Positions 4,109-16,719 of a DNA stretch of 61,574 nt are shown here, piece by piece (the stretch's first letter is position 1; the number at the start of each line of letters is the position of its first letter). The translations under genes and the position numbers were made by a program. Source of the stretch: a bacterium (lineage in GTDB: Bacteria > Patescibacteriota > Saccharimonadia > CAILAD01 > GCA-016700035); the NCBI GenBank assembly GCA_020854115.1, contig JADZGC010000017.1, forward strand, positions 1 to 61,574. Reading direction: 5' to 3'. Below the pieces are notes generated by a model. That model did not search any database. It worked only from the letters and a program-made list of their open reading frames with translations, and was not told the DNA's origin.

Positions 4109-4185
4109 AGGGGTGTAGCTCAGCTGGCTAGAGCGTCGGTCTCCAAAACCGAAGGCCGCAGGTTCGATCCCTGCCACCCCTGCCA
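4109..4185 (+). tRNA. tRNA-Trp (anticodon CCA), CCA encoded
   Basis: Hand-folded cloverleaf: acceptor AGGGGTG/CACCCCT, D arm GCTC-AGCTGGCTA-GAGC, anticodon arm TCGGT-CTCCAAA-ACCGA, T arm GCAGG-TTCGATC-CCTGC, then G-CCA. Confidence 0.9.
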
Positions 4186-4190
4186 AGTCG

Positions 4191-4363
4191 GATTTTGAAC
4201 GAAGCTCGAACCTTTTTCGAGCAAGATAATTAAATCCCGCCCTGCGGCTCGTCCGCCGGCATAGCCAGCGGCCCAAACCAAAAGATTTTTCTTCATGATT
4301 GTTTTGAATTTCGGCGGGTGGTTTTTTCTTTTTAATTGAATTCGAAAAATATTTTGGTTTGCC
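4191..4363. repeat. Left copy of a 173-nt inverted repeat (IR-L)
   Basis: Reverse complement of 8681-8853 with 3 mismatches by hand alignment. Contains the hairpin GCTCGAA-CCTTT-TTCGAGC (4204-4222). Track ORFs 4120..4440(-) and 8646..8882(+) give near-identical peptides, confirming the inverted duplication. Confidence 0.9.
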
Positions 4364-4372
4364 GAGCTAGCC

Positions 4373-4406
4373 TTACAATAACACCATTTTTCTGGTAACA
4401 TTGTAA
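4373..4406 (+). promoter_or_regulatory. Inverted repeat TTACAAT-N20-ATTGTAA upstream of the HTH gene (candidate operator / C-box-like site)
   Basis: TTACAAT at 4373-4379 and ATTGTAA at 4400-4406. A related TACAATTTAATGTTA lies at about 4440-4454, just before ATG 4465. Confidence 0.3.
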
Positions 4407-4464
4407 TGTAGTTTGAGGTCAGTTTTCTCATTCCACCCATACAATTTAATGTTACTATTTTAAT

Positions 4465-4662
4465 ATGGTAGAGTCAAACAAAGTAAAGAAGTTACGAGAA
4501 AAGTTAGGACTATCCCAGGAAAGGCTGGCTCGGTTAGCCGATGTCTCAACTAACACGATTATCAACATCGAGTCTGGCAAACAGACAAATCCTACGATTT
4601 CAACAATAAAAAAGATAGCAAAGGCGCTCAACGTTAGTGTTGATGAACTGTTAAGGAAATAA
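4465..4662 (+). CDS. XRE-family helix-turn-helix regulator (controller-protein-like)
   Basis: 65 aa. LREKLGLSQERLARLADVSTNTIINIESGKQ.NPTISTIKKIAKALNVSVDELL is a textbook HTH_3 sequence. The gene stops 2 nt before the methyltransferase ATG. Confidence 0.85.
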   Translation: MVESNKVKKLREKLGLSQERLARLADVSTNTIINIESGKQTNPTISTIKKIAKALNVSVDELLRK

Positions 4663-4664
4663 GC

Positions 4665-5885
4665 ATGGCCAAGTATCTTACAAGCGCAAAAAATGCAAAA
4701 AACGATGAATTTTATACTCGTTATGAAGATATATCGAAAGAGGTTGAGGCATATCTAGACTTTGACCCTGATGCTTTCAAGGGCAAGGTTGTCTACTGCA
4801 ACTGTGATGACCCATTCGAGAGCAACTTTTTCCGTTACTTTGCGCTTAATTTTAAGAAACTTGGCCTCAAGCAACTCATAACGACCAGCTACAAACCTTC
4901 TCCAGTTGCCAACACGCAGTTGGGACTGTTTGGAGATGATAAGACGGTAGCAACGTCCAAAGGTCGTCCAAAAGTAACCGCCAACAAGTTCATCATCAAT
5001 GAAGTAAGTGATTTTGACGAAGATGGCTCGTTCAATCTTCAAGACGTTGCAGAACAATTGAAGGCAAACAAAAACAATGAGTGGTCGCCTCTTGAAGGAG
5101 AAGGCGATTTTAGAAGTCCAGAATGTGTGGATTTGCTAAAGCAGTCAGATATTGTAGTAACCAACCCTCCTTTTAGTCTATTCCGCGAGTATGTGAAGCA
5201 ACTGGTTGATCACAAGAAGAAATTTGTGATTATTGGCAACATGAATGCAATCACCTACAAAGAAATATTCCCGCTAATCGAAGATGACAAAATGTGGCTC
5301 GGTAATGGCTTTCATGCGGGCAACGCATATTTCTTTACTCCCAACGCGCGTGAATACGCCTCTGGTGTATATGACGAAAAAACAGGACTCGTAAAGTTTC
5401 GCAACGTTTGTTGGTTTACAAATATGGATCATGGCAGACGCCACCAACCACTGCCACTAATGACTATGTCCGATAACTTGAAATATTCGAAGCACAAAGA
5501 GATTAAGGGCAAAAAGGCATACGAAAAGTATGACAACTACGATGCTATCGAGGTGCCATTCACCGACTCAATTCCTGATGACTATGATGGAGTTATGGGA
5601 GTGCCGATTAGCTTTCTTGACAAATACAGCCCTGAACAGTTTGAGATTGTCGGTTTAACTTCAGGCCGAGATGAGTTTAAGGTTGGGCCTTCGAAAAAAT
5701 ACCAAAATCCTCAACAACATAACAAGGACGGCTCCCTAACAAACGGCAGCAAGACAAACACCCGCGCAACTATACTTCTAGATAAAGTGCCTGACGGCAT
5801 TTATTACACGGCTGATAATGCGGATGGCCCGCTAATGATAGTTTATGCGAGAATCTTGATTAAGCACAGAAAGGCGAAGAAATGA
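4665..5885 (+). CDS. N6-adenine DNA methyltransferase, EcoRI-methylase-like family
   Basis: N-terminal [16 protein letters not shown]...[19 protein letters not shown] and catalytic [10 protein letters not shown] (NPPF motif IV), then [19 protein letters not shown]. As I recall these are hallmarks of the PF13651-type adenine methylases. Confidence 0.8.
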
Positions 5886-7045
5886 AAACAGCTTTGAGAA
5901 CCGACATCACAGTCAAAGATATTTGCGACGGATTTGTTTATAACGAGCTTGAAGGAAAAGGTTTGTTTGGTTTGTCGGGCAAGCTGACCATTCAGCCAGA
6001 GTATCAACGAAACTACATTTACGCTGACGGCAAGAAAGATGTTGCGGTCATTCATTCAATCCTAAAGGGTTATCCGATAGGCTTGATTTATTTCAATAAA
6101 GTAAGCGACGATAATCTAGAAGTTCTAGATGGCCAGCAACGTATTACTAGCTTTGGGCGATTTGTGAATGGCAAGTTTGCCATTAAAGACGAAAATGGAA
6201 TGGAGCAATATTTTAGTGGTATTGCTGCCGATAAGCAGGCGAAGATTCTAAACACCAAACTTCTTATCTATGAATGCGAAGGCACTGAAAGCGAAATCAA
6301 GGAGTGGTTCAAGACCATCAACATCGCTGGTGTTCCACTAAACAGTCAAGAGCTTCTGAATGCCGTGTATTCTGGACCATTTGTAACTCTTGCCAAAGAA
6401 GAATTCAGCAACAGCCAAAACTCTAACATCCAAAAATGGAGTGCGTATGTTTCTGGCAGCGCAAACAGACAAGATTTCTTGGAGCGAGCACTCGATTGGG
6501 TCAGTAAAGGAAATATTGGCAACTACATGAGCCGCCATCGAAAAGACGATAACATCACTGAGCTAAAAACCTACTTCAATACTGTGATCGACTGGGCTTC
6601 GAGCGTCTTTACTGATGTTGAGGGTGAAATGCGCGGGCTTGAATGGGGGCGACTATACGAAACCTACCACAAAAATTCCTACGACCCTGCTAAGGTGTCC
6701 GGTGATGTGCATAAACTTTACGGCGACCCTTACGTCAAGAATCGCAAAGGAGTTTTTGAGTTTATTCTTGGCGGCCTTACGGACACAAAACTACTGGATG
6801 TTCGTGTCTTTGACGAAGCAACCAAAAAATCAGTCTACGCTACTCAGACGAAGGCGGCAGAAGCTAAAGGAACGTCTAATTGCTCGCACTGTGCAATTGG
6901 ACACGATGTAAACAAAGAGAAAATATGGAGCCTGAGCGACATGGACGCTGACCATGTTGCCGCCTGGAGCAAAGGCGGCGCAACCTCTATCGATAACTGC
7001 GAAATGCTATGCAAGACCCACAACCGCGCAAAAGGAAATCGATAA
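5882..7045 (+). CDS. DUF262 (ParB/Srx-like, GmrSD N-domain) fused to a C-terminal HNH nuclease
   Basis: The ATG overlaps the methylase TGA (ATGA at 5882-5885). It carries the [13 protein letters not shown] (DGQQR) motif. The C-terminus reads CSHCAIGH...[32 protein letters not shown], a Cys-flanked HNH finger. Confidence 0.8.
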
Positions 7046-7048
7046 GGT

Positions 7049-8608
7049 ATGCCGAGTCTATCGTGGCAAACGATGGTAGACTTTGTAACCTGTATTGAGC
7101 GATGGCTCGACATAAACCTATCCCATGAGGCGTTGATAGCTATTCCAGCCTTGTTTGTTGCTTTGCTTGTGCCAATAGCATTCTTCTTGATGGAACGCAA
7201 AGACTTATACGGTTTTGACAAGAACGTTATTCTGGACAAAATTGTGCTGGCTAGAGTATCCATACCAATGGTCTTTCTGGTATCCATAGCCCTGTTATTT
7301 AACATAACAACTCTGTCAGTGCTTTTCACCACCTTGCTGCTATTGGTGGTTATGGTCGTCTTAATACGAGTTTATAAGTGGATGGCGTCAGTAGAAATCT
7401 TGAAATACAAAACCACTTACAAACAAGATATGCGTCTACGATTTATACGTAGTATAAAAAATGACATCGAAAAGGTAGACACTTGGGCAATCATCTTAAA
7501 CGATGAGAAACTACTGGAAAAGAACCAGCGTGGGTTGGTTGCAGAGTTTATAGCTGCCGTCAAAAACATAAAAGACAGCAAAAACCGCTACCCTAAGTCC
7601 AATTTACTCGGACTAATGAGCCGCAACGTAAGTAAGGTAGACTTTGCTGATATTCAATCTTACGATGACTTAGTGCAATACTCTATTGAATATTTTCCGG
7701 AAATGCGTAGAGTCCGTACGCAAAGAAAACAAGCGACTAACAAAACTAACCAAGAAACCTATCCTCCCTACCAGCAGAAGGAGCTGGCTATCAACCTACT
7801 TAAGATTGCTTTGGACAAGAAGATTAGTGATATTTTTGATCACATATACTTTACCGCTATCAAAAAGTATATCGCAAAGGACGGCGTAGACGAGGCTGGG
7901 TTTATTCGTGACTTCTTACCAGCTTACGTGCATGTTGTTAAAGAGAACGAGGAATATGACGCTAAAAAACTCTGGCAAGAATTGTCCGATTGGGTTGTGA
8001 CCAAAGAACTCCTTTCTAAAGAGGAATCTCGGCAAAAGACCATTTCCTTATTGAACGCCTACATGGACTCCATAGGACAGCGGGCGCACGCAGATACAGA
8101 ATTGCCACAACACGAAGTAAGAGTTATCGACGATGTAACTGAGCGCATGCTGCCAAATATAAACGTGTCATTCTGGTTTGATATCATGACTTTCTACAAC
8201 AGTGGTTGGGGCTTAGATGAGGGCGAGGATAGCACACATGGTCAGGTCAGAAGTCACGTAAGTAGAAGGAGAGATTTTGGGTCATTTAATGCTCTTGGCG
8301 ATATAGATTGGAGTGATAACGAAGAGGAAAGGCTGAAGGCATACGAGGCAGAAGCCAATAGACAGGATGAGGAAACTATGTATATCTTAGGACTTATTTA
8401 CCCTTGGCTGCGTAATCCCAAAGAAATTCAAAAAGTTCTCAACCAGATACAAATCATAGAGAAAGAAAAATTATTTGATACAGAGAGCCACGAAGCACGA
8501 CGGCTTGAGTCATTAAAGAATCGCTTTGAGAAAATTAGAGCTTACACCGACAAAATGATAGCCGAGCAAGACAGTAAAAAGCAGAGCAAAAAGAAGAAGC
8601 AAAAATAG
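7049..8608 (+). CDS. Unknown 519-aa protein with three N-terminal TM helices and a large helical cytoplasmic region
   Basis: The ATG lies 3 nt after the nuclease stop. TM segments are ALIAIPALFVALLVPIAFFL, VSIPMVFLVSIALLF and VLFTTLLLLVVMVVLI. The remaining ~400 aa are charged and helical with a KKQSKKKKQK tail. No family recognised. Confidence 0.6.
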   Translation: MPSLSWQTMVDFVTCIERWLDINLSHEALIAIPALFVALLVPIAFFLMERKDLYGFDKNVILDKIVLARVSIPMVFLVSIALLFNITTLSVLFTTLLLLVVMVVLIRVYKWMASVEILKYKTTYKQDMRLRFIRSIKNDIEKVDTWAIILNDEKLLEKNQRGLVAEFIAAVKNIKDSKNRYPKSNLLGLMSRNVSKVDFADIQSYDDLVQYSIEYFPEMRRVRTQRKQATNKTNQETYPPYQQKELAINLLKIALDKKISDIFDHIYFTAIKKYIAKDGVDEAGFIRDFLPAYVHVVKENEEYDAKKLWQELSDWVVTKELLSKEESRQKTISLLNAYMDSIGQRAHADTELPQHEVRVIDDVTERMLPNINVSFWFDIMTFYNSGWGLDEGEDSTHGQVRSHVSRRRDFGSFNALGDIDWSDNEEERLKAYEAEANRQDEETMYILGLIYPWLRNPKEIQKVLNQIQIIEKEKLFDTESHEARRLESLKNRFEKIRAYTDKMIAEQDSKKQSKKKKQK

Positions 8609-8623
8609 AGTTTGTCGCTAGAC

Positions 8624-8640
8624 CCGCGCCGAAGGCGCGG
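8624..8640 (+). terminator. GC hairpin after the 519-aa ORF (CCGCGCC-GAA-GGCGCGG), no T-tract
   Basis: Perfect 7-bp stem seen directly. It lacks a U-run, so intrinsic-terminator function is uncertain. Confidence 0.3.
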
Positions 8641-8680
8641 CTGGGGTGGGAGCGGCTCCCTCACTTGCTTTAGCAAGGGA

Positions 8681-8853
8681 GGCAAACCAAAATATTTTTC
8701 GAATTCAATTAAAAAGAAAAAGCCACCCGCCGAAATTCAAAACAATCATGAAGAAAAATCTTTTGGTTTGGGCCGCTGGCTATGCCAGCGGACGAGCCGC
8801 AGGGCGGGATTTAATTATCTTGCTCGAAAAAGGTTCGAGCTTCGTTCAATATC
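8681..8853. repeat. Right copy of the 173-nt inverted repeat (IR-R)
   Basis: Reverse complement of 4191-4363. This copy contains a perfect CCGCTGGC-TAT-GCCAGCGG hairpin; the left copy has one mismatch there. Confidence 0.9.
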
Positions 8854-8931
8854 TCCTGCCATACAGAACTTTCAACATATAGCCAATGTTTATATAAGTA
8901 TTGATTAGTTTTGTTCGTGGATACCCTGTAG

Positions 8932-10176
8932 CTATTCGTCTCGCAATGAGTCTACAGGAGATATACTTGCTGCTCGTTTCGCTGGAAAAATTGCGATAAC
9001 CACACCTATAAACGTCATAAATAGAATACTGAGAAGAGGTAGCCACCAAGGAGAAGAAACGACGGAGAAGCGCTCTGTGATGCCGCGGCCCGAAGATATC
9101 CCGTTCATGACTACATTTAACACAATACCCATAAGAGTTGATAGCGCGATACCAAAGATTGCGCCAATAAAGGACAATAATATACTCTCGTAGAGGAATA
9201 GTCGCATAATATCACGGTTTCTGACCCCCAGGGTAAGCATCAGGCTTATTTCCTTTGTTCGTTCAAGCAAGGCGACAGTCAGGGTATTGAACATGCCCAA
9301 AATAGCGATAAACATTCCGATTGCTCCAAACAGAACCAAACCGGCATTTACATATTTGAATAGTTGTTGAATCTGCGCAATGGTGTCAAGCGGTGATGTG
9401 GTTTCTAGGCCTAGTGCTTCAATATTTTTGCGAACATCATCGATTTTGTCAGTAGAATTTACCTGAAGTTTCAACTGCGTGTATTTATCTACTTCGGCTT
9501 TGGCAAAAATAGACGATTGGACAAAGAGTTCGCTGCTACTTTCGTTATTTGTAACACCTACGATCGTTACATCTTCTTGAATTTTTTTTGGCTTGTTGGC
9601 TTCTGCGTCAATCTGCAAAGCTAGGTTCATTTGTTGTCCGATAATATCATCAGCATTTTTGTTGATTGTACGGAGAGCAGCTGCACTGATGATGGCTTGG
9701 CTGCCGGGATTGGCTGATTCAAACCACTTGCCCTTAGACATATGTATCTCTGTTAAATCCTTGTAGGCATTGTCTACTCCATAGACTACTAAGTCGCTAG
9801 AATTCGAATCTGATTTTATTGTTCCTACACCCGTACTTATGCGTGATACAGAGTCTACATTGGCTATATTTGCTAATTGATTAGCGGTTTTATCGTTTAA
9901 TTTTATGATCTCAGAATTGGGTGTTGTGACGTCAACAATCTTTACCGAGCTATTCCCTACAATCTGTTGGGTCACGAGATTTTGTAGGCCAAGCCCTAAT
10001 GTGAGTAAGAAGTGAATAGCCCCAACCCCAACCATAACGCCTATAATTGTGAGTGATGAACGAAGACGTTTGGAGAGCAAATTTCTAGCAGCAATAAAAG
10101 CTATGATTTGTAAGCTCATTGATGTATTTGGTTTGCCCCGAAATAACTTGAGCTTGGAGAGAAGTTTATTATACAT
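8932..10176 (-). CDS. ABC transporter permease, FtsX/MacB type
   Basis: N-terminal TM, then a ~230-aa extracytoplasmic domain, then a C-terminal FtsX-like 3-TM block (LLERTKEISLMLTLGVRNRDIMRLFLYESILLSFIGAIFGI). Overlaps the ATPase gene by 8 nt. Confidence 0.8.
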   Translation of the reverse strand: MYNKLLSKLKLFRGKPNTSMSLQIIAFIAARNLLSKRLRSSLTIIGVMVGVGAIHFLLTLGLGLQNLVTQQIVGNSSVKIVDVTTPNSEIIKLNDKTANQLANIANVDSVSRISTGVGTIKSDSNSSDLVVYGVDNAYKDLTEIHMSKGKWFESANPGSQAIISAAALRTINKNADDIIGQQMNLALQIDAEANKPKKIQEDVTIVGVTNNESSSELFVQSSIFAKAEVDKYTQLKLQVNSTDKIDDVRKNIEALGLETTSPLDTIAQIQQLFKYVNAGLVLFGAIGMFIAILGMFNTLTVALLERTKEISLMLTLGVRNRDIMRLFLYESILLSFIGAIFGIALSTLMGIVLNVVMNGISSGRGITERFSVVSSPWWLPLLSILFMTFIGVVIAIFPAKRAASISPVDSLRDE

Positions 10177-10957
10177 CAGTTTTGATCCGTCTTAGCTCTT
10201 TGATGCGCTGTTCTGTCTGCTTGAAAATTCTTTCTGCTGTGCTCATATGCTGTTCTTTAGGAATATTGGTAACAACTCCGTCTTGGATATTCAGCAGATT
10301 ATCAGCAAATGAAATGTACTCCAGGTTATGTGTAACAAGAATGATGGTGCGCCTGAATTCTGTTTGGCAGTTGGCGAGTAATTTCATTATCTTGTCTCCA
10401 TTTGCGGAGTCCAGGTTTCCAGTTGGCTCGTCAGCAATGATGAGCAAGGGCTCGTTTACCAATGCTCTACCGAGTGCTACCCGTTGCTGCTCGCCACCAG
10501 AAAGTTTGTGAGGAAATTTTTTAGCATATGGGGTCATGTCAATTCTATTTAGTATTCCATAGATGATTTCATGAGCTTGTTTTTTGGTGTATCCGGTTGC
10601 ATATAAGGGCACAGCTAGATTATCAACAACATTAAGACTCTTTACCCAATAATTAGTTTGGTGAACAAATCCTGCCCGATTTGCTCTATACCTAGCTAGC
10701 CTATCAGCGTCTAGATCGTACAAGTTTTGATTTTGCACATAAACCGCTCCAGTTGACGGCTTCTGTAAACCGCCCAAAACATTTAGAAGTGTTGATTTAC
10801 CGCTACCCGATGCACCATATATAATATTGAAGCTATTTGCTCTTAGGCTAAAACTGACATTTGTGAGTGCGCGAACATCCGCATCACCAACCAGAAAATC
10901 TACTGATACATTTTCTACTCTGACGATTTCACTTTGGTCTTGTATATTTTTCCGCAT
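10169..10957 (-). CDS. ABC transporter ATP-binding protein (MacB/LolD-like)
   Basis: Walker A GASGSGKSTLLNVLGG, signature LSGGEQQRVALGRAL, Walker B LLIIADEPTGNLD. Starts 2 nt after the giant ORF stop. Confidence 0.9.
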   Translation of the reverse strand: MRKNIQDQSEIVRVENVSVDFLVGDADVRALTNVSFSLRANSFNIIYGASGSGKSTLLNVLGGLQKPSTGAVYVQNQNLYDLDADRLARYRANRAGFVHQTNYWVKSLNVVDNLAVPLYATGYTKKQAHEIIYGILNRIDMTPYAKKFPHKLSGGEQQRVALGRALVNEPLLIIADEPTGNLDSANGDKIMKLLANCQTEFRRTIILVTHNLEYISFADNLLNIQDGVVTNIPKEQHMSTAERIFKQTEQRIKELRRIKTDV

Positions 10958-10959
10958 AC

Positions 10960-13900
10960 CTAAAACCCGAATATTCCTCTCAAAGCATTAAGCACTATAG
11001 AGATTATGCTTTCTGATGCCTTCCCAATTATAGCGGACTTAGTTGAGCCTTGTGCTTCATTATTTGATCCATCTCTCGATACTGGTTGCATAGTATACAC
11101 ACTAGAGGTTGACAGATCTGACACAATAACCACATGTTCGGTTGTCAGACTATTTGCCCCACCTGTACGGTTGTTTAAGTTCTGTAGGCTTGCTCCTTGA
11201 CCATAGGCTACTTGACTGGTATCTTGTTCGTCGGTAGTCCAGGAGACAACGGCTTGGCCTCTTGCTTCCACACCTGTGCCTTTGATTGATGCCTCAATTC
11301 GCAGGTTAGAAATCTTTGGTGGTCTGGTATCCAGAGCGGTTTTGAAAGTTTGACGGTCAGATGTTGCAAGATTGCCAGCGACATCACGACTCTCAGCTAT
11401 GAGGAAGTAGTCACTGTTATCTTGGAGATCGTTAATGGTCATTTCGTGTTCGGTAACAAGCTTGCTATTAGCAATAGTCTTGCCTTCAGTTCCATTCTTA
11501 CCATAGTTTACTGTTGACGAGGTAGGGACATTGGTAGTCCAACTCACCAGCTGAGTACTGGTTGGCTGGTCTTTGACAGGTTGGAACTTCAAATTCGAGA
11601 TGGCAGGGCGAGGGGGTGTGGTGAAAGAATATATATCACCGGTATATTCACCGCCTTCGCTGTCGAGCAGAGATATTCGTAGCACATAACTGGCGCCATC
11701 GTCTAAACCATTTAGCTCAACCTGATAGGTAGATTCTGACAGCGAGGTATTTATCTCTGTCTTGCCGCCAAAAGCATCTGTCTTGCCGTAATAGACTAAA
11801 GCTTTGCTGGCATCTTCTGAGGTAAACTGCACAGTTGCACTGTTTAGTGTTGTTTTAATAACCTTAACATTTTTTACTATTGGCGCGGGTGCCGTTGTGA
11901 AACTAATTTCGTTTGATACACCGGTATTTCCGTCTTCGTCGGTCCAACGAGCGACAAAGAAGTAAGTTGTCCCCGCCTTGAGATTATCAAGATCAACAAT
12001 GTGACTAGTTACTTGTGATGAGTTGCTAATTTCCGAAGCAAAGTAGCTACCGCTGCTAGTTCCAATTGCTATCTTACTATCGCTTTCTCGATTTGTAACC
12101 CAGGTTATTTTTGCACGCTTGGTTGTAACTTCGGACACTACAGGATTTGAGAGCATTTCAGCTGGTTCAGTAAACTTCCCTGTCGGGATGATATTGGTGA
12201 CGGTACTGTACGCACCGCAGTTATTAGCGCTATCGCAGGCACTAATTTTGTAATAGTACCTAGTCTGGCTTAATCCACCGTCAACATAACTCAGCCCAGC
12301 AGTGGTAGCAATTTGGGCAAAACTATTGCCGTCGGTAGAGCGCATAACTTTGTAGGTAGCAACCCCAGAGCCCTGATCGACCGGAACTGCCCAGGATAAT
12401 GCAACCTTCCAGTTGCTTGTCGCTTTTGTAGAAACATCAGCAATTTCTACATTAGTCGGCATGCCAGGAGCAGAGGTATTGGCGGTAAAGGTTACGCTAC
12501 TTGCCGTAGCATAGTTAATGTTATTGGCTTCGTCCTTGGCTACTACATAGAAGGTATTATCCCCGGGTTGTGTTGCATATGGACCAGTCGGCAATGACGT
12601 TTGGCCAGCACTTGTGAAGTTACATGTATTTATTGTTGGCAACGTATTAATGGTATAGCAATATTCTAATGACGAAGGCTGGCCTACGAAGCTTGATGGT
12701 TCATCCCAGTCGAAACTAAAGGCGTTGTCTGTATTGCTAACGGGAGAAACTGTTACATTGCGAGGAGATGATGGAGCAGAAGTATTTATCTTGATGACTG
12801 CCGTCGTGTAGGTAGTAGAAAAGTTACCAGCCTGGTCAACGCCTCGGAAGTAGATAATATTGTTCCCTTCTATCAAGTTAGGATAATCATAAGTTGCATC
12901 AGTGCGATAAGATCCATTGTTGGGCAAGATATCACTCGTGTCTTGATTACCGTTATGATTGGCTCCATACCAAATACCCTCACCGCCTATGCGGTACTGA
13001 AGCCCCAGCAGTCCGGAGTGGGCATCGTTTGCAGATTCGCTACCGGTAGTTGGCCAAGTAAGGGTTACATCGCGGGTTGCCAAAAACTGCGATGGAGCAG
13101 AAATAAATCCAGGTGCAGCAGGAGCCGTATTATCAAATTTGAAGCTGAATGTTTCGCTTCCACCAACGAAAACATTATGTGAGTGATCGAGTGCTTTTAT
13201 ATGTAAAAAGTACGGGTCAGTAGACGATGAGAGAGCTGATCCTAGATAGCCAGATACAGCCAAGTCCAATTCGGTCGTAGCTATAGCAAAGGGGCACGTG
13301 CCATCGGTATCCAGCGGACTGCTGCCCAAAATGCCCTTGTCACTTACTGGATCTGCTAGTTCGCTCTGTCCAAGATATAAACAGTAGCCCTTAATGCCGC
13401 TTGCACCTGGATTGCCATCGTCTTGTGCAGGGTCCCAAGTAAAGTCTGGTGTGTTACCCGTTGCCCATCCCTCACTTGGAACTTGTGCACCATTCTTAAT
13501 CTGGTACATTGCGATATTGTCCGCATTTGAGGTAGGAGGATTAATATCGGGGTTAATGGTAACAGTTACACTTTGTAGCGTAATATCTTGTGCTCCATTG
13601 CTTGATAGGAAAGCCTTCCATTTGAACTGGCGAGATCCTATGGGAAATTCCTCGATATGTGCATTTATATCTACTGCCGTATTGTGGTCAGTTGCGCCGG
13701 CAGTTGTCCAAGTAGAACCATTGTAAAAGTACCATGTTGTACCATCATCATTCGATATTTGGTAGTATATTTCCCCGCCATTCTTGCTTGCGTTTTCTGT
13801 AAATGTCTTCCAACTGGCAACTGCAGGAGGATTGAAAGCAATATTTGATGTAATTGTGGGCGAGTCGGTTACTCTACGTTTACCAATGAACGACGCACCG

Positions 13901-16719
13901 CCATCCGTAGTACCAGCAATCATGGTGTTGCTATCAGCTATATGCAGGGCAGAAAATTCGTCACTCGCCAGATCGGGCTTGGTGGTTTTATCTATTACCT
14001 GTCCAACCGTTGGAGAATTTGACGTAGCGCCATCGATCTGTATAATGCGTCCGTCCTCTGTAACACCACTATTCAACAATCCAAAATATTTATTAGAAGA
14101 TGCATCGTAAGCACCTGTTACGATTCCTTCAGGAAACCATTGGGGCATGGTGGTATCAAATAATCGAACTTGGGTTATCGATATATCCCCGTAAGTTAAT
14201 GGTTTTTGGTACTTAATACGAATATGTTGGGCGGTAGTTGTTGGAAATGATATACCATGATTAGGCTTAAAGTAGGTTCCATAGCTTAGAAGTCCATTAG
14301 ACATGTTGTTAGCAGTCGCTAACTGAGTCACTTGACCCTTGTCAAAGTGATCGGCAAACATTTTGAACTCTCTTATTCCCAAACCGTACGTACTAGCACC
14401 GTTAGGGCTAGTGGCGCGTATACGAAAAGCTTTGGCGGTAACATTGTTAAATGTGGAAACTCGCGATAGCTCTGAGTTGTTCGTGACCGTGTCAAGCGTC
14501 TGCGGATTACCGGCCTCGAACATTGTTTTGTAGATTTCGAGTTCTGTTATCGATACCCCAGGTCCGACTTTGCTGGCAGTTATATTTATCCGCAGATACC
14601 TTGCATTGACAGCACTACTGAAAACAATCACTTTCTGAGACTCCGAATTGTTAGTTACTGTATCGGCTGTTATCCAGTTTGAGTTATCATTACTGTATTC
14701 AATAGTGAAATCCTTTGGACCATCGGCGCCGGAAATGAAGGAGATTCCCTTTATAGATTGTTCACTACCCAAGTCGGCACTTAGCCATTGAGGCGTTGAA
14801 GTAGATGGGGTAATGTTGGTGTGCCAAATAGTGTTTGGTGATACATCGAACGCCTGACTAGGGACATACCCCAAATAACTAGACGAGGCATTTGCTGAGC
14901 TTATAGAGAGTTTTTCCGTAGCTTCATCGCTACTTTCAATGAAATAATCTTTAGGGGCATGTGCTTCGTCAGTAAATTGTAAGTCTACCGAACCTACAGA
15001 TGTAGGTGAAGTAAATACTTGCTCGATCGTCTGGCTGGGGTAGGCAGTATAACCAGTAGCAGACCAAAAATATGTGCTTACGTAGTTGTCATTGACCTTG
15101 CTTGCAACATTATCAGGATGGTTTGAATAATAACTACCGAACTTGGATAATGCTGTAGCGCCAGAAGCTATATTGGCTGATGTACCGTGAGTACTTGACT
15201 CCATAGTATAGCCATTAGGCAGGTTACCGCTAAACCACTGCCTGAGGTAATTGAATGTCTTTTGAGACCCTAAGTCATATTCAAGCTCTTGGCTTCTGTC
15301 GCGTAGGTAATAAAGCGAATTATAACTAGTCCAGATAGGGTCAGAATCTAAAGTTGCAGTTTCTATATTTGTTCCGTTGTAATAACGTGCAAAGGCACTT
15401 GCGCTAGATGTGACAGCGCTTCCCCTACTGTCACTTGTAAAGTTCTTCACTGTAGACTGTGATACTGTAGTCCGATTCTCTTGAATTACAGAAAGGCCAT
15501 CATCTGTTTCTACAATAATCGTATTGTCACCCGCGTTTGCCGTAGAAGTGCCCACACCAATGTGTAATCCTCGGTATGTAGCATAGGCGGTAGCCGGCCC
15601 TTTTGTTGCACCGGGAAACCACCCCCTACTATAGTACACATCAACTGCGTTATATGCCCAGTCCGCAGCAATTGTAGTAGCGTTATATTTAACCATAATC
15701 GGCGAATCTGGGTTTAATCCGTTAAAGTCTCGAACGGCATAATATAGGGTGCCGTCGGAAACAATCCTGGTGCCATAAATATAGCCTGCAGATGATTTGT
15801 AAATACCGGGTGTGCCGGTCTCGTCCTTTATAAGGTGAATGTGTGTTTGTGTTCCAACTGCTAGGTATGTCTTTCCACTCAGAACCTCGGCATCTATATC
15901 AAGAACGTTGTTATTCCCTAATGCCGGGCTAGTAGACGTTGTGTAGCGATAGCTACCAAGTGGCGTGTTGTTGCCCAACGAACTAATCTGCCAACGATAT
16001 ATACCACCATTTTTCCCGGCATATAAATAGCCACTTTCAGCTGTAATTGTCGGAAAACCACCACCGGCAGTTATGTAACCAGTTCTTTCCCAGGTATCTT
16101 GGCGCAAGACATCGATACCTAAATCGGTAGATACGAAGTAGTAGGTACTATCGGCCGCCACATCCAAGACCTTGTTGGATTGCAACTTGCCGCCAGCGGC
16201 AGTAAAGTTTTCTATTTTGTCCAATAGACTCAGGCGCAAGTTATTGTTGTTTGGCTCTATCTTGCCATTGTCATAGGTATAATTTGCCGGGTTAGTGAAA
16301 TCCCAGGTGTGAGATGTTTCGATGGCATAAGCCCTCATATTCAAACCCACTACAACTACTAAAGCAAGCAAAACAGCTGCGGTATGCACATGCCCATGGT
16401 GTAATCCTTTCCAATTCCAAGAGTGCCATCTACGATACCAGTCAAGCTTATTCATAAGGTGCATATGTGGACGATGAGCACCATGGTGTCTAGCTTTGGC
16501 GAAGAAAGAGCCGGCAATCTTGACTGGCTTAGTTGTAGTAATCCTACCCGTTAAATACTTCAGTTTTCTGCCAGGTGCAGTAACTGTGCTATAGACCGCG
16601 CTCTGTTTTGTCCTGCCTATGGGAGTATGGGCTTTACGAGTCGACGCAGGCACAGTTCGCCAACTTTTGCTAGCGAGCTTTCGTATCGCAACAATCAATT
16701 TCCATAGTGTTTGTTTCAC
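10960..16719 (-). CDS. Giant (1919 aa) membrane-anchored surface protein with discoidin/F5-8-type-C-like and tandem Fn3-like modules
   Basis: A basic, His/Trp-rich N-terminus is followed by one TM (TAAVLLALVVVVGL). Next come repeat-rich beta regions and galactose-binding-like modules (PQWLSADLGSEQSIKGISFISGADGPKDFTIEYSNDNSNW...ARYLRINIT). The C-terminus has four tandem ~95-aa Fn3/PAP-N-like modules (e.g. TSHIVDLDNLKAGTTYFFVARWTDEDGN). Confidence 0.8.
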   Translation of the reverse strand: MKQTLWKLIVAIRKLASKSWRTVPASTRKAHTPIGRTKQSAVYSTVTAPGRKLKYLTGRITTTKPVKIAGSFFAKARHHGAHRPHMHLMNKLDWYRRWHSWNWKGLHHGHVHTAAVLLALVVVVGLNMRAYAIETSHTWDFTNPANYTYDNGKIEPNNNNLRLSLLDKIENFTAAGGKLQSNKVLDVAADSTYYFVSTDLGIDVLRQDTWERTGYITAGGGFPTITAESGYLYAGKNGGIYRWQISSLGNNTPLGSYRYTTSTSPALGNNNVLDIDAEVLSGKTYLAVGTQTHIHLIKDETGTPGIYKSSAGYIYGTRIVSDGTLYYAVRDFNGLNPDSPIMVKYNATTIAADWAYNAVDVYYSRGWFPGATKGPATAYATYRGLHIGVGTSTANAGDNTIIVETDDGLSVIQENRTTVSQSTVKNFTSDSRGSAVTSSASAFARYYNGTNIETATLDSDPIWTSYNSLYYLRDRSQELEYDLGSQKTFNYLRQWFSGNLPNGYTMESSTHGTSANIASGATALSKFGSYYSNHPDNVASKVNDNYVSTYFWSATGYTAYPSQTIEQVFTSPTSVGSVDLQFTDEAHAPKDYFIESSDEATEKLSISSANASSSYLGYVPSQAFDVSPNTIWHTNITPSTSTPQWLSADLGSEQSIKGISFISGADGPKDFTIEYSNDNSNWITADTVTNNSESQKVIVFSSAVNARYLRINITASKVGPGVSITELEIYKTMFEAGNPQTLDTVTNNSELSRVSTFNNVTAKAFRIRATSPNGASTYGLGIREFKMFADHFDKGQVTQLATANNMSNGLLSYGTYFKPNHGISFPTTTAQHIRIKYQKPLTYGDISITQVRLFDTTMPQWFPEGIVTGAYDASSNKYFGLLNSGVTEDGRIIQIDGATSNSPTVGQVIDKTTKPDLASDEFSALHIADSNTMIAGTTDGGASFIGKRRVTDSPTITSNIAFNPPAVASWKTFTENASKNGGEIYYQISNDDGTTWYFYNGSTWTTAGATDHNTAVDINAHIEEFPIGSRQFKWKAFLSSNGAQDITLQSVTVTINPDINPPTSNADNIAMYQIKNGAQVPSEGWATGNTPDFTWDPAQDDGNPGASGIKGYCLYLGQSELADPVSDKGILGSSPLDTDGTCPFAIATTELDLAVSGYLGSALSSSTDPYFLHIKALDHSHNVFVGGSETFSFKFDNTAPAAPGFISAPSQFLATRDVTLTWPTTGSESANDAHSGLLGLQYRIGGEGIWYGANHNGNQDTSDILPNNGSYRTDATYDYPNLIEGNNIIYFRGVDQAGNFSTTYTTAVIKINTSAPSSPRNVTVSPVSNTDNAFSFDWDEPSSFVGQPSSLEYCYTINTLPTINTCNFTSAGQTSLPTGPYATQPGDNTFYVVAKDEANNINYATASSVTFTANTSAPGMPTNVEIADVSTKATSNWKVALSWAVPVDQGSGVATYKVMRSTDGNSFAQIATTAGLSYVDGGLSQTRYYYKISACDSANNCGAYSTVTNIIPTGKFTEPAEMLSNPVVSEVTTKRAKITWVTNRESDSKIAIGTSSGSYFASEISNSSQVTSHIVDLDNLKAGTTYFFVARWTDEDGNTGVSNEISFTTAPAPIVKNVKVIKTTLNSATVQFTSEDASKALVYYGKTDAFGGKTEINTSLSESTYQVELNGLDDGASYVLRISLLDSEGGEYTGDIYSFTTPPRPAISNLKFQPVKDQPTSTQLVSWTTNVPTSSTVNYGKNGTEGKTIANSKLVTEHEMTINDLQDNSDYFLIAESRDVAGNLATSDRQTFKTALDTRPPKISNLRIEASIKGTGVEARGQAVVSWTTDEQDTSQVAYGQGASLQNLNNRTGGANSLTTEHVVIVSDLSTSSVYTMQPVSRDGSNNEAQGSTKSAIIGKASESIISIVLNALRGIFGF

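Follow-up and report, generated by a model that had tools for sequence, protein, structure and literature searches.

The bacterial contig JADZGC010000017.1 (GenBank assembly GCA_020854115.1; Patescibacteriota, Saccharimonadia, CAILAD01, GCA-016700035) was analysed over a stretch of 61,574 nucleotides, hereafter the window, in which a small XRE-type helix-turn-helix (HTH) gene, a gene for an EcoRI-family N6-adenine methylase and a gene for a nuclease combining a DUF262 with an HNH domain follow one another on the same strand. We consider it likely that this locus is a Type II-like restriction-modification (R-M) operon, situated on a small mobile cassette, in which cleavage is blocked by methylation. 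The remainder of the window is ordinary bacterial chromosome (EF-Tu, EF-G, SecY, ABC transporter). The operon consists of the following features, where C, M and R are used below for the HTH (putative controller), methylase and nuclease genes, respectively.

4373–4455, forward strand: putative control region ahead of the operon, containing two overlapping imperfect inverted repeats
4465–4662, forward strand: XRE-type HTH gene (65 aa; stop codon TAA)
4665–5885, forward strand: EcoRI-family (PF13651) N6-adenine methylase gene (406 aa), the proposed protective half
5882–7045, forward strand: DUF262-HNH nuclease gene (387 aa), the proposed restriction half

Two bases (gc) separate the TAA of the HTH gene from the methylase ATG at 4665, and the methylase TGA (5883–5885) overlaps the nuclease ATG (5882–5884) in the form ATGA. 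An earlier note on this DNA, made from the sequence alone, had described the three genes as one translationally coupled unit, and inspection of the open reading frames (ORFs) and junctions returned the coordinates and both junctions exactly as it gave them. The two methylase motifs that it named, an 11-aa motif close to the N-terminus (residues 13–23) and NPPF (167–170), are present, and the Pfam accessions that it gave (PF03235, PF01844 and PF13651) were correct, with all three families matched in a Pfam search. The methylase matches EcoRI_methylase (PF13651) at 1e-126 over model positions 2–341 of 345, with a score of 423 bits against a curated cut-off of 26.4, and the PADLOC model MTase_II (PDLC03297) over its full length (1.6e-100). 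It is a stand-alone methylase with complete catalytic motifs, as is expected of the methylase of a Type II system. The NPPF motif is invariant in 67 methylase orthologues, among which the variable segments are residues 81–140 and 215–250 and the C-terminal tail (335–400).

The N-terminal domain of the nuclease matches Pfam GmrSD_N (PF03235; 3.8e-22, residues 36–163, with DGQQR at 83–87), and its C-terminus matches HNH (PF01844; 4.1e-07, residues 334–387), with the HNH and zinc residues arranged as C334-x2-C337, D357-H358, N372 and C377-x2-H380-N381. No match to DUF1524 (PF07510) was returned by the Pfam search, which bears out the earlier description of a DGQQR-type DUF262 domain joined to a Cys-flanked HNH finger in the place of DUF1524. 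The AlphaFold2 model (mean predicted local distance difference test (pLDDT) score 93.2) predicts a short N-terminal beta element followed by a ParB/Srx-like alpha/beta domain to approximately residue 165, an all-helical middle (approximately 166–330) and a terminal beta-beta-alpha HNH. Alignment of 56 diverse relatives (33–66% identical to the protein of the window) revealed invariant or nearly invariant residues in both terminal domains, namely Q42 and R43 (YQR) and D83, G84, Q85, Q86 and R87 in the N-terminal part, and Q156, E157, N160, C334, C337, H358, N372 and C377 further on. As these residues vary little or not at all across such diverse relatives, both the nucleoside triphosphate (NTP) pocket and the HNH/zinc site are under selection. 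The invariant Q42 R43 and D83–R87 suggest that the nuclease binds a nucleotide and support an active enzyme, whose activity, by analogy with BrxU, GmrSD and SspE, is probably coupled to nucleotide binding.

Structural comparison placed BrxU as the top Foldseek match of the nuclease (E 1.1e-03, probability 0.95, global template modelling score (TM-score) 0.25), followed by the CTPase domains of ParB, Noc and KorB and then by the HNH domains of Gme and McrA; the likeness is at the level of single domains, and none of these folds is close overall. A profile of the nuclease family compared with PDB sequences matched HNH domains and only ~40 residues of BrxU, and no solved structure for any family member was found in PDB sequence and Foldseek searches. 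With BrxU as the nearest solved fold, an alternative suggests itself in which the protein is a compact GmrSD-like Type IV nuclease directed against modified foreign DNA, and the N6-methyladenine (m6A) methylase is an independent companion for self-marking or anti-restriction. It is favoured by the published biochemistry that we found for DUF262 nucleases, since GmrSD, Eco94GmrSD, BrxU and SspE are all dependent on modification or sense modified DNA, by the existence of a few full-length nucleases without a nearby methylase (see below) and by the name 'McrA' that some relatives bear, which is a Joint Genome Institute (JGI) auto-annotation.

The genomic neighbourhood of the nuclease across its relatives argues for an R-M system. 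We compared three sets of 80 loci each, whose loci and contigs are labelled here with L-numbers: a close set with one genome per species (nuclease 78–86% identical to that of the window), a distant set from metagenomes (34–42%) and a set of viral or proviral loci from IMG/VR (38–83%). A methylase lies upstream on the same strand in 73 of the 80 close loci, and in the other seven the contig breaks off, in three cases past a gene of a kind found as cargo between M and R elsewhere. The distant set has a methylase upstream in 76 of 80 loci, the other four having <150 nt of upstream sequence, and the viral set has one upstream in 71 of 80 and downstream in one. The remaining viral loci comprise three without room for a methylase and five that can be evaluated (L194; L218, L219, L225; and L243, with 425 nt upstream). 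Pooled over the three sets, 220 of the 226 evaluable loci have a co-oriented EcoRI-family methylase upstream (73/73, 76/76 and 71/77; L243 included), and one further locus has it downstream. Most M–R junctions measure −4 (ATGA), −1, 0 or +1 nt, and the three-gene arrangement of the window is not due to chance, the same M-to-R junction being present in >200 independent loci. The nuclease gene is thus conserved beside its methylase (220/226), as is the case in Type II systems.

The earlier note had left two readings side by side, an R-M architecture with the DUF262-HNH protein as the restriction enzyme and m6A self-marking combined with a Type IV activity, and had named homologues mostly without an adjacent methylase as the outcome that would speak against it. 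This outcome was not observed. The R-M reading stands because nuclease homologues nearly always keep an adjoining methylase, and it is strongly supported by the upstream methylase and the coupled junctions. Its rival is left without support, as a methylase adjoins the nuclease in ~98% of evaluable loci: a single methylase family is retained down to 35% nuclease identity, whereas a modification-dependent enzyme needs no obligate coupling to one methylase family, and the ATGA coupling makes synthesis of the nuclease depend on that of the methylase. The nuclease also has no DUF1524, its PADLOC match is to REase_II and only 2 of the 56 relatives weakly touch a Type IV model. We therefore regard the Type IV explanation as very improbable.

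The linkage of methylase and nuclease tolerates insertions. In 11 of the 73 close loci (L007, L012, L017, L020, L021, L029, L030, L056, L064, L065 and L073), 0.6–3.1 kb lie between the two genes, and in ten of these the gap is filled by unrelated cargo, judged from the sequences to be Fic-like, RhuM-like, AAA_13 with DUF2130, a C5 methylase with an ATPase, or ParB with Dam; the 0.6-kb gap of L021 contains no ORF of ≥70 aa. AAA_13 and DUF2130 genes are also found in L082, there behind the nuclease. The M–R pair looks like a scaffold in which further defence-type genes gather. Four of the viral loci without a detected methylase (L194; L218, L219, L225) belong to two kinds of proviral or mobilisable element. 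In one kind, the nuclease is followed by a 1076-aa KAP-type NTPase, and in the other, a RhuM-like gene precedes the nuclease and integrase-like and relaxase-like genes follow it. It is possible that these nucleases are orphans or are protected in trans.

Comparison with defence-system databases indicates that the operon of the window is a new copy of an already catalogued Type II R-M family. The nuclease matches the PADLOC-DB model PDLC03418 ('Type II restriction enzyme', REase_II) at 2.4e-85, with residues 8–386 aligned to model positions 7–371 of 372, and as all 56 diverse relatives match this model (best 8.6e-135), the whole nuclease family is covered by it. The seed of PDLC03418 lies in a distant clade of 371–374 aa (P0195, 1.6e-131) to which the protein of the window does not belong, and the members of the cluster are unnamed. 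Type IV-like and other DUF262 models (NsnA, PD-T4-2_A and HEC-05) match the N-terminal domain of the nuclease only. As REase_II and MTase_II are both matched over their full length by adjacent, co-oriented genes, standard pipelines would call the pair an R-M system of Type II. The suggestion of the earlier note that the pairing is undescribed therefore does not hold, since both halves are already in PADLOC-DB as Type II (PDLC03418 and PDLC03297), which is the second outcome that the note itself had named as speaking against its proposal.

The literature search found no paper that describes or characterises a DUF262-HNH Type II enzyme, and the pairing is undescribed in the GmrSD phylogenomics paper, the DUF262 reviews, the Menshen paper, the Type II surveys and an m6A review. 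The papers on PADLOC and DefenseFinder give no account of how PDLC03418 was made, and no named enzyme or recognition site behind it was found. MluCI was weighed as the prototype enzyme but set aside, being placed with EcoRI and MunI in a review. Relatives of the nuclease are publicly annotated only as 'DUF262 domain-containing protein', 'HNH endonuclease' or 'McrA', and NCBIfam holds no model for the nuclease. KpnI, SphI, NlaIII, Hpy99I and PacI are listed as Type II HNH restriction enzymes in a 2008 survey, in which none of the 14 HNH subfamilies is described as containing DUF262 (PMC2441816).

Methylase and nuclease distances rise together (Mantel r 0.39, p 0.001), in line with co-inheritance of the two genes. 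In the close clade, the nucleases are 73–96% identical (median 80%) and the methylases 42–95% (median 62%), the latter with a bimodal distribution. The methylases form two clades (67% identity within, 51% between), which largely coincide with a 2-aa length difference of the nuclease (387 or 389 aa; an indel), with 62 concordant and 5 discordant cases among 67 pairs; the window is one of the five, and the discordant pairs suggest occasional recombination between M and R. A faster evolution of the methylase than of the nuclease was considered and not retained, as it is partly due to the variable insertions and the C-terminal tail and vanishes at deeper divergence, with distant methylases 38–59% and distant nucleases 34–42% identical to the proteins of the window.

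These patterns bear on a second alternative, methylase-guided restriction with a logic resembling that of Type III systems, under which the target would be set by the methylase. A nuclease of low specificity would serve as a constant effector that the methylase, or its unmethylated sites, would recruit or license, perhaps through an NTP-gated ParB-like clamp. In the close clade, nuclease identity is alike within and between methylase clades (0.81 vs 0.80), so that a nuclease of ~80% identity is retained regardless of the clade of its methylase, which lends weak support to this alternative. The divergence of the methylase clades (51% identical, with variable insertions) resembles the combination of a constant R with variable specificity subunits, and the invariant ParB/Srx NTP pocket and the tight translational coupling of M and R point in the same direction. 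However, EcoRI-family methylases are stand-alone monomeric enzymes, and a strict stoichiometric complex is disfavoured by the single locus with R before M and by the few loci without a nearby methylase. The 11 loci with separated genes, ten of them filled with cargo, argue against it too, the nuclease diverges at depth at least as much as the methylase, as in ordinary Type II pairs, and the PADLOC label of the nuclease is that of a Type II enzyme. Methylase-guided restriction is therefore an unlikely explanation, if a less remote one than a Type IV activity.

The HTH protein matches Pfam HTH_3 (2.9e-20), and a small HTH gene inside an R-M operon is the position typical of a controller (C) protein. 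Genes of this kind are present in ~4 of 73 close, 5 of 76 distant and none of 80 viral loci (<10%), and the HTH gene is thus an optional add-on in the nuclease family. HTH genes of 65–71 aa ending 1–4 nt before the next ATG were found in L001, L026, L053, L069, L118 and L136, the HTH-to-methylase layout recurs in L173 and L174, and the HTH gene is also carried by L082 and L085. The two inverted repeats upstream of the gene, one with 14-nt arms at 4373–4386 and 4393–4406 (79% complementary) and one with 16-nt arms at 4395–4410 and 4440–4455 (81% complementary), may serve as operators to which the HTH protein binds. A consensus promoter scan of the forward strand of 4373–4455 returned nothing, there is no Shine-Dalgarno sequence before the HTH ATG at 4465, no canonical C-box is recognisable upstream of the gene and no motif common to the upstream regions of the other C-M-R loci was seen. 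The most economical reading is that the HTH protein is most likely a C-like autoregulator.

Several points weigh against the interpretation of the locus as a Type II-like R-M operon with a methylation-sensitive nuclease and a controller gene. Blockage of the nuclease by methylation is something that we infer from gene linkage only, and the published DUF262 nucleases named above all respond to modified DNA. An invariant NTP-binding motif is, to our knowledge, no feature of orthodox Type II enzymes, for which Mg2+ suffices. The seed of PDLC03418 may be a merely putative REBASE entry as well as a characterised one. Full-length nucleases occur in L194 and L218 with no EcoRI-type methylase detected within 4 kb upstream, and in L219 and L225 with none in the 0.9–1.4 kb of upstream sequence available; because these four loci lack a detected methylase, the nuclease is not always lethal without a methylase in cis. 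As regards the controller, the HTH protein matches the PADLOC C-protein model (Control_protein PDLC03665, 7.7e-13) no better than other XRE models (HTH_VI 1.5e-13, capH 2e-13), and its gene is rare among relatives. C genes normally precede R, not M, the usual C-controlled R-M system consisting of a C–R unit and a separate M promoter.

Under the R-M interpretation, the EcoRI-family methylase would place N6-methyladenine on its sites in host DNA, and the DUF262-HNH protein would cut DNA that does not carry this mark, with the HNH His-Me finger (H358, N372 and N381) and its Cys3His zinc site as the putative catalytic centre. From the M-to-R order with its ATGA overlap, the nuclease would be translated only after the methylase, and probably less often, and this methylase-first translation would shield a new host during establishment. 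The inverted repeats that precede the HTH gene are the most likely binding sites of its product, which would so set the level of the C-M-R transcript. The ParB/Srx pocket (YQR and DGQQR) probably binds an NTP and may gate or license cleavage, as in BrxU, GmrSD and SspE. That the family consists of methylation-blocked DUF262-HNH enzymes in which a ParB/Srx-type pocket gates cleavage by binding or hydrolysing a nucleotide is a more specific proposal, which we put forward tentatively as a possibility of lower probability than the R-M interpretation as such. A stronger version of it would make the nuclease a constant effector targeted through the methylase.

The nuclease family is large, with at least 8000 sequences of close relatives and, in terms of representatives of clusters at 50% identity, 5394 at E≤1e-3 and 466 at E≤1e-30. 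Close relatives occur in the genomes of at least 585 species, among them Patescibacteria, Bacteroidota, Chloroflexota, Proteobacteria and Omnitrophota, and full-length copies in 44 plasmid records, for example, from Moraxella, Enterococcus faecium, Arthrobacter, Rhodococcus and Pediococcus. Several of the plasmid copies are annotated as 'DUF262 domain-containing protein' beside an 'adenine-specific methyltransferase EcoRI family protein'. Cultured carriers include Flavobacterium xanthum DSM 3661 (L041), Lacihabitans sp. CCS-44 (L019), Moraxella osloensis NBRC 115781 with its plasmid pSKB0120-6 (L081) and strains of Enterococcus faecium whose copy lies on a megaplasmid. The pair is also carried by the cultured Flavobacterium phage vB_FspS_laban6-1 (L172, NC_048834.1, 10219–12581), whose nuclease is 81% identical and whose M and R genes overlap as ATGA; here the pair lies between genes of the opposite strand, beside the tape-measure gene. 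The spread of the family reflects wide horizontal transfer, with the mobility typical of R-M systems.

Palindrome content was assessed for the window, for 775 kb of flanking host sequence and, by means of a synonymous-codon shuffle, for the M and R genes. The M and R genes of 71 loci are poorer than their flanks in the 4-bp palindromes GGCC, GATC, ACGT, CGCG, CATG and CCGG, with Markov observed/expected values of 0.43 vs 0.62 for GGCC, 0.58 vs 0.86 for ACGT and 0.66 vs 0.98 for CCGG. This depletion is consistent with passage of the cassette through many hosts. The cassette of the window contains GTAC once against ~16 expected from base composition. Across the sequences assessed, palindrome avoidance gave no specific candidate for a recognition site, the avoidance being generic (GGCC, GATC, ACGT and CTAG), and sites with an AATT core, the core of the specificities known for this methylase family, showed no specific depletion in any of the three.

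The operon lies within a repeat-bounded segment (4364–8680), whose further features and flanking elements are the following.

4109–4185: tRNA-Trp gene, 6 nt beyond which the left repeat arm begins
4191–4363: left arm of a 173-nt inverted repeat, 98% complementary to the right arm
7049–8608, forward strand: gene 4 (519 aa), a predicted membrane-anchored all-helical protein without assigned function
8681–8853: right arm of the 173-nt inverted repeat

A contig from another sample (L085) is identical to positions 4334–8710 of the window (100%), and one from a third sample (L082) has the same left end and a C-M-R unit of 88.7% identity, followed by AAA_13 and DUF2130 genes where the window has gene 4 and then by the right end at 97%; both contigs break ~30 nt inside both repeat arms. 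As L082 holds different genes after the nuclease, this slot carries exchangeable cargo. The repeat-bounded cassette looks like a small exchangeable defence slot and is possibly an invertible segment. Each repeat arm contains a small outward-facing ORF starting MKKNLLVWAAGYA(G/S)GRAAGRDLIILLEKGSSFVQ (~4150–4278, reverse strand, and 8745–8882, forward strand), the left copy of which runs into the tRNA-Trp gene. The inverted repeat was also considered as an RNA element and rejected, with no Rfam match and a predicted folding no better than that of shuffled sequence (z −0.81).

Gene 4 starts 4 nt past the nuclease stop codon on the same strand. A role for it as a fourth R-M component was considered and rejected, as it is absent from all 240 related loci and other genes occupy its slot in L082, the nearest relative. 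Its protein has no match in Pfam, PADLOC, NCBIfam or PHROG, and its AlphaFold2 model (pLDDT 82), which predicts 3–4 N-terminal transmembrane helices and an all-helical body, has no significant structural match. Only 26 homologues were found, elsewhere and without an adjoining R-M system of the type in the window; these lie near serine recombinases and ParB_N-N6_N4 methylases, in surroundings of a mobile or defence-like character, and are followed by a small partner gene, with HEPN_AbiV in two loci (L169 and L170). Gene 4 may be an uncharacterised abortive-infection-type gene. A cupin gene flanking the cassette was found on one other contig only, which is too short to serve as an empty-site comparison. 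Further along the window, a 1919-aa protein (10960–16719, reverse strand) with F5/8 type C, fibronectin type III and purple-acid-phosphatase N-terminal domains adjoins a MacB/FtsX-type ABC transporter pair (8932–10957) and is probably a giant surface protein.

Taken alone, the window adds a further example of an R-M cassette that is common and spreads horizontally. The family to which it belongs is large, maintains an unusually high identity of ~80% across phyla, is carried on plasmids, phages and by many Patescibacteria, and joins an NTP-binding domain of the ParB fold to an HNH nuclease in the company of a protective methylase. If true, NTP gating of cleavage would represent an NTP-switched, non-motor mechanism of restriction that is biochemically undescribed, and would overturn the present picture of DUF262, in which it senses DNA modification. 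A characterised member would reveal if a Type II-like enzyme can be NTP-gated and would supply the site behind a methylation motif that is widespread in metagenomes. It would also bring to light a barrier to DNA transfer, probably one of relevance to genetic work in Saccharibacteria and their relatives.

In comparison with known systems, the operon is closest to the PDLC03418/PDLC03297 family, with which it shares full-length nuclease and methylase matches and adjacent, co-oriented genes; it differs in the upstream HTH gene, which most members lack, and in belonging to a clade that is not the nearest to the seed. An XRE-type HTH gene at the head of the operon and inverted repeats upstream of it are likewise found in C systems of the PvuII, BamHI, Esp1396I and AhdI type, but these combine a C–R unit with a separate M promoter, whereas the window has a tightly coupled C-M-R order. 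KpnI, SphI, NlaIII, Hpy99I and PacI likewise have a separate m6A methylase and an HNH-fold endonuclease side by side, but are not listed with a ParB/Srx NTP-binding domain (PMC2441816). That domain is shared with GmrSD, BrxU and SspE, which have the ParB/Srx-fold DUF262 (YQR and DGQQR), a helical middle and a C-terminal His-Me finger in common with the nuclease of the window, although its likeness to BrxU is low in global structure (TM-score 0.25) and confined to ~40 residues in sequence. The nuclease of the window is ~60–65% of the length of these enzymes and has a zinc-finger HNH (PF01844) where they carry DUF1524, and while they stand alone, its family is linked to a methylase in ~98% of evaluable loci.

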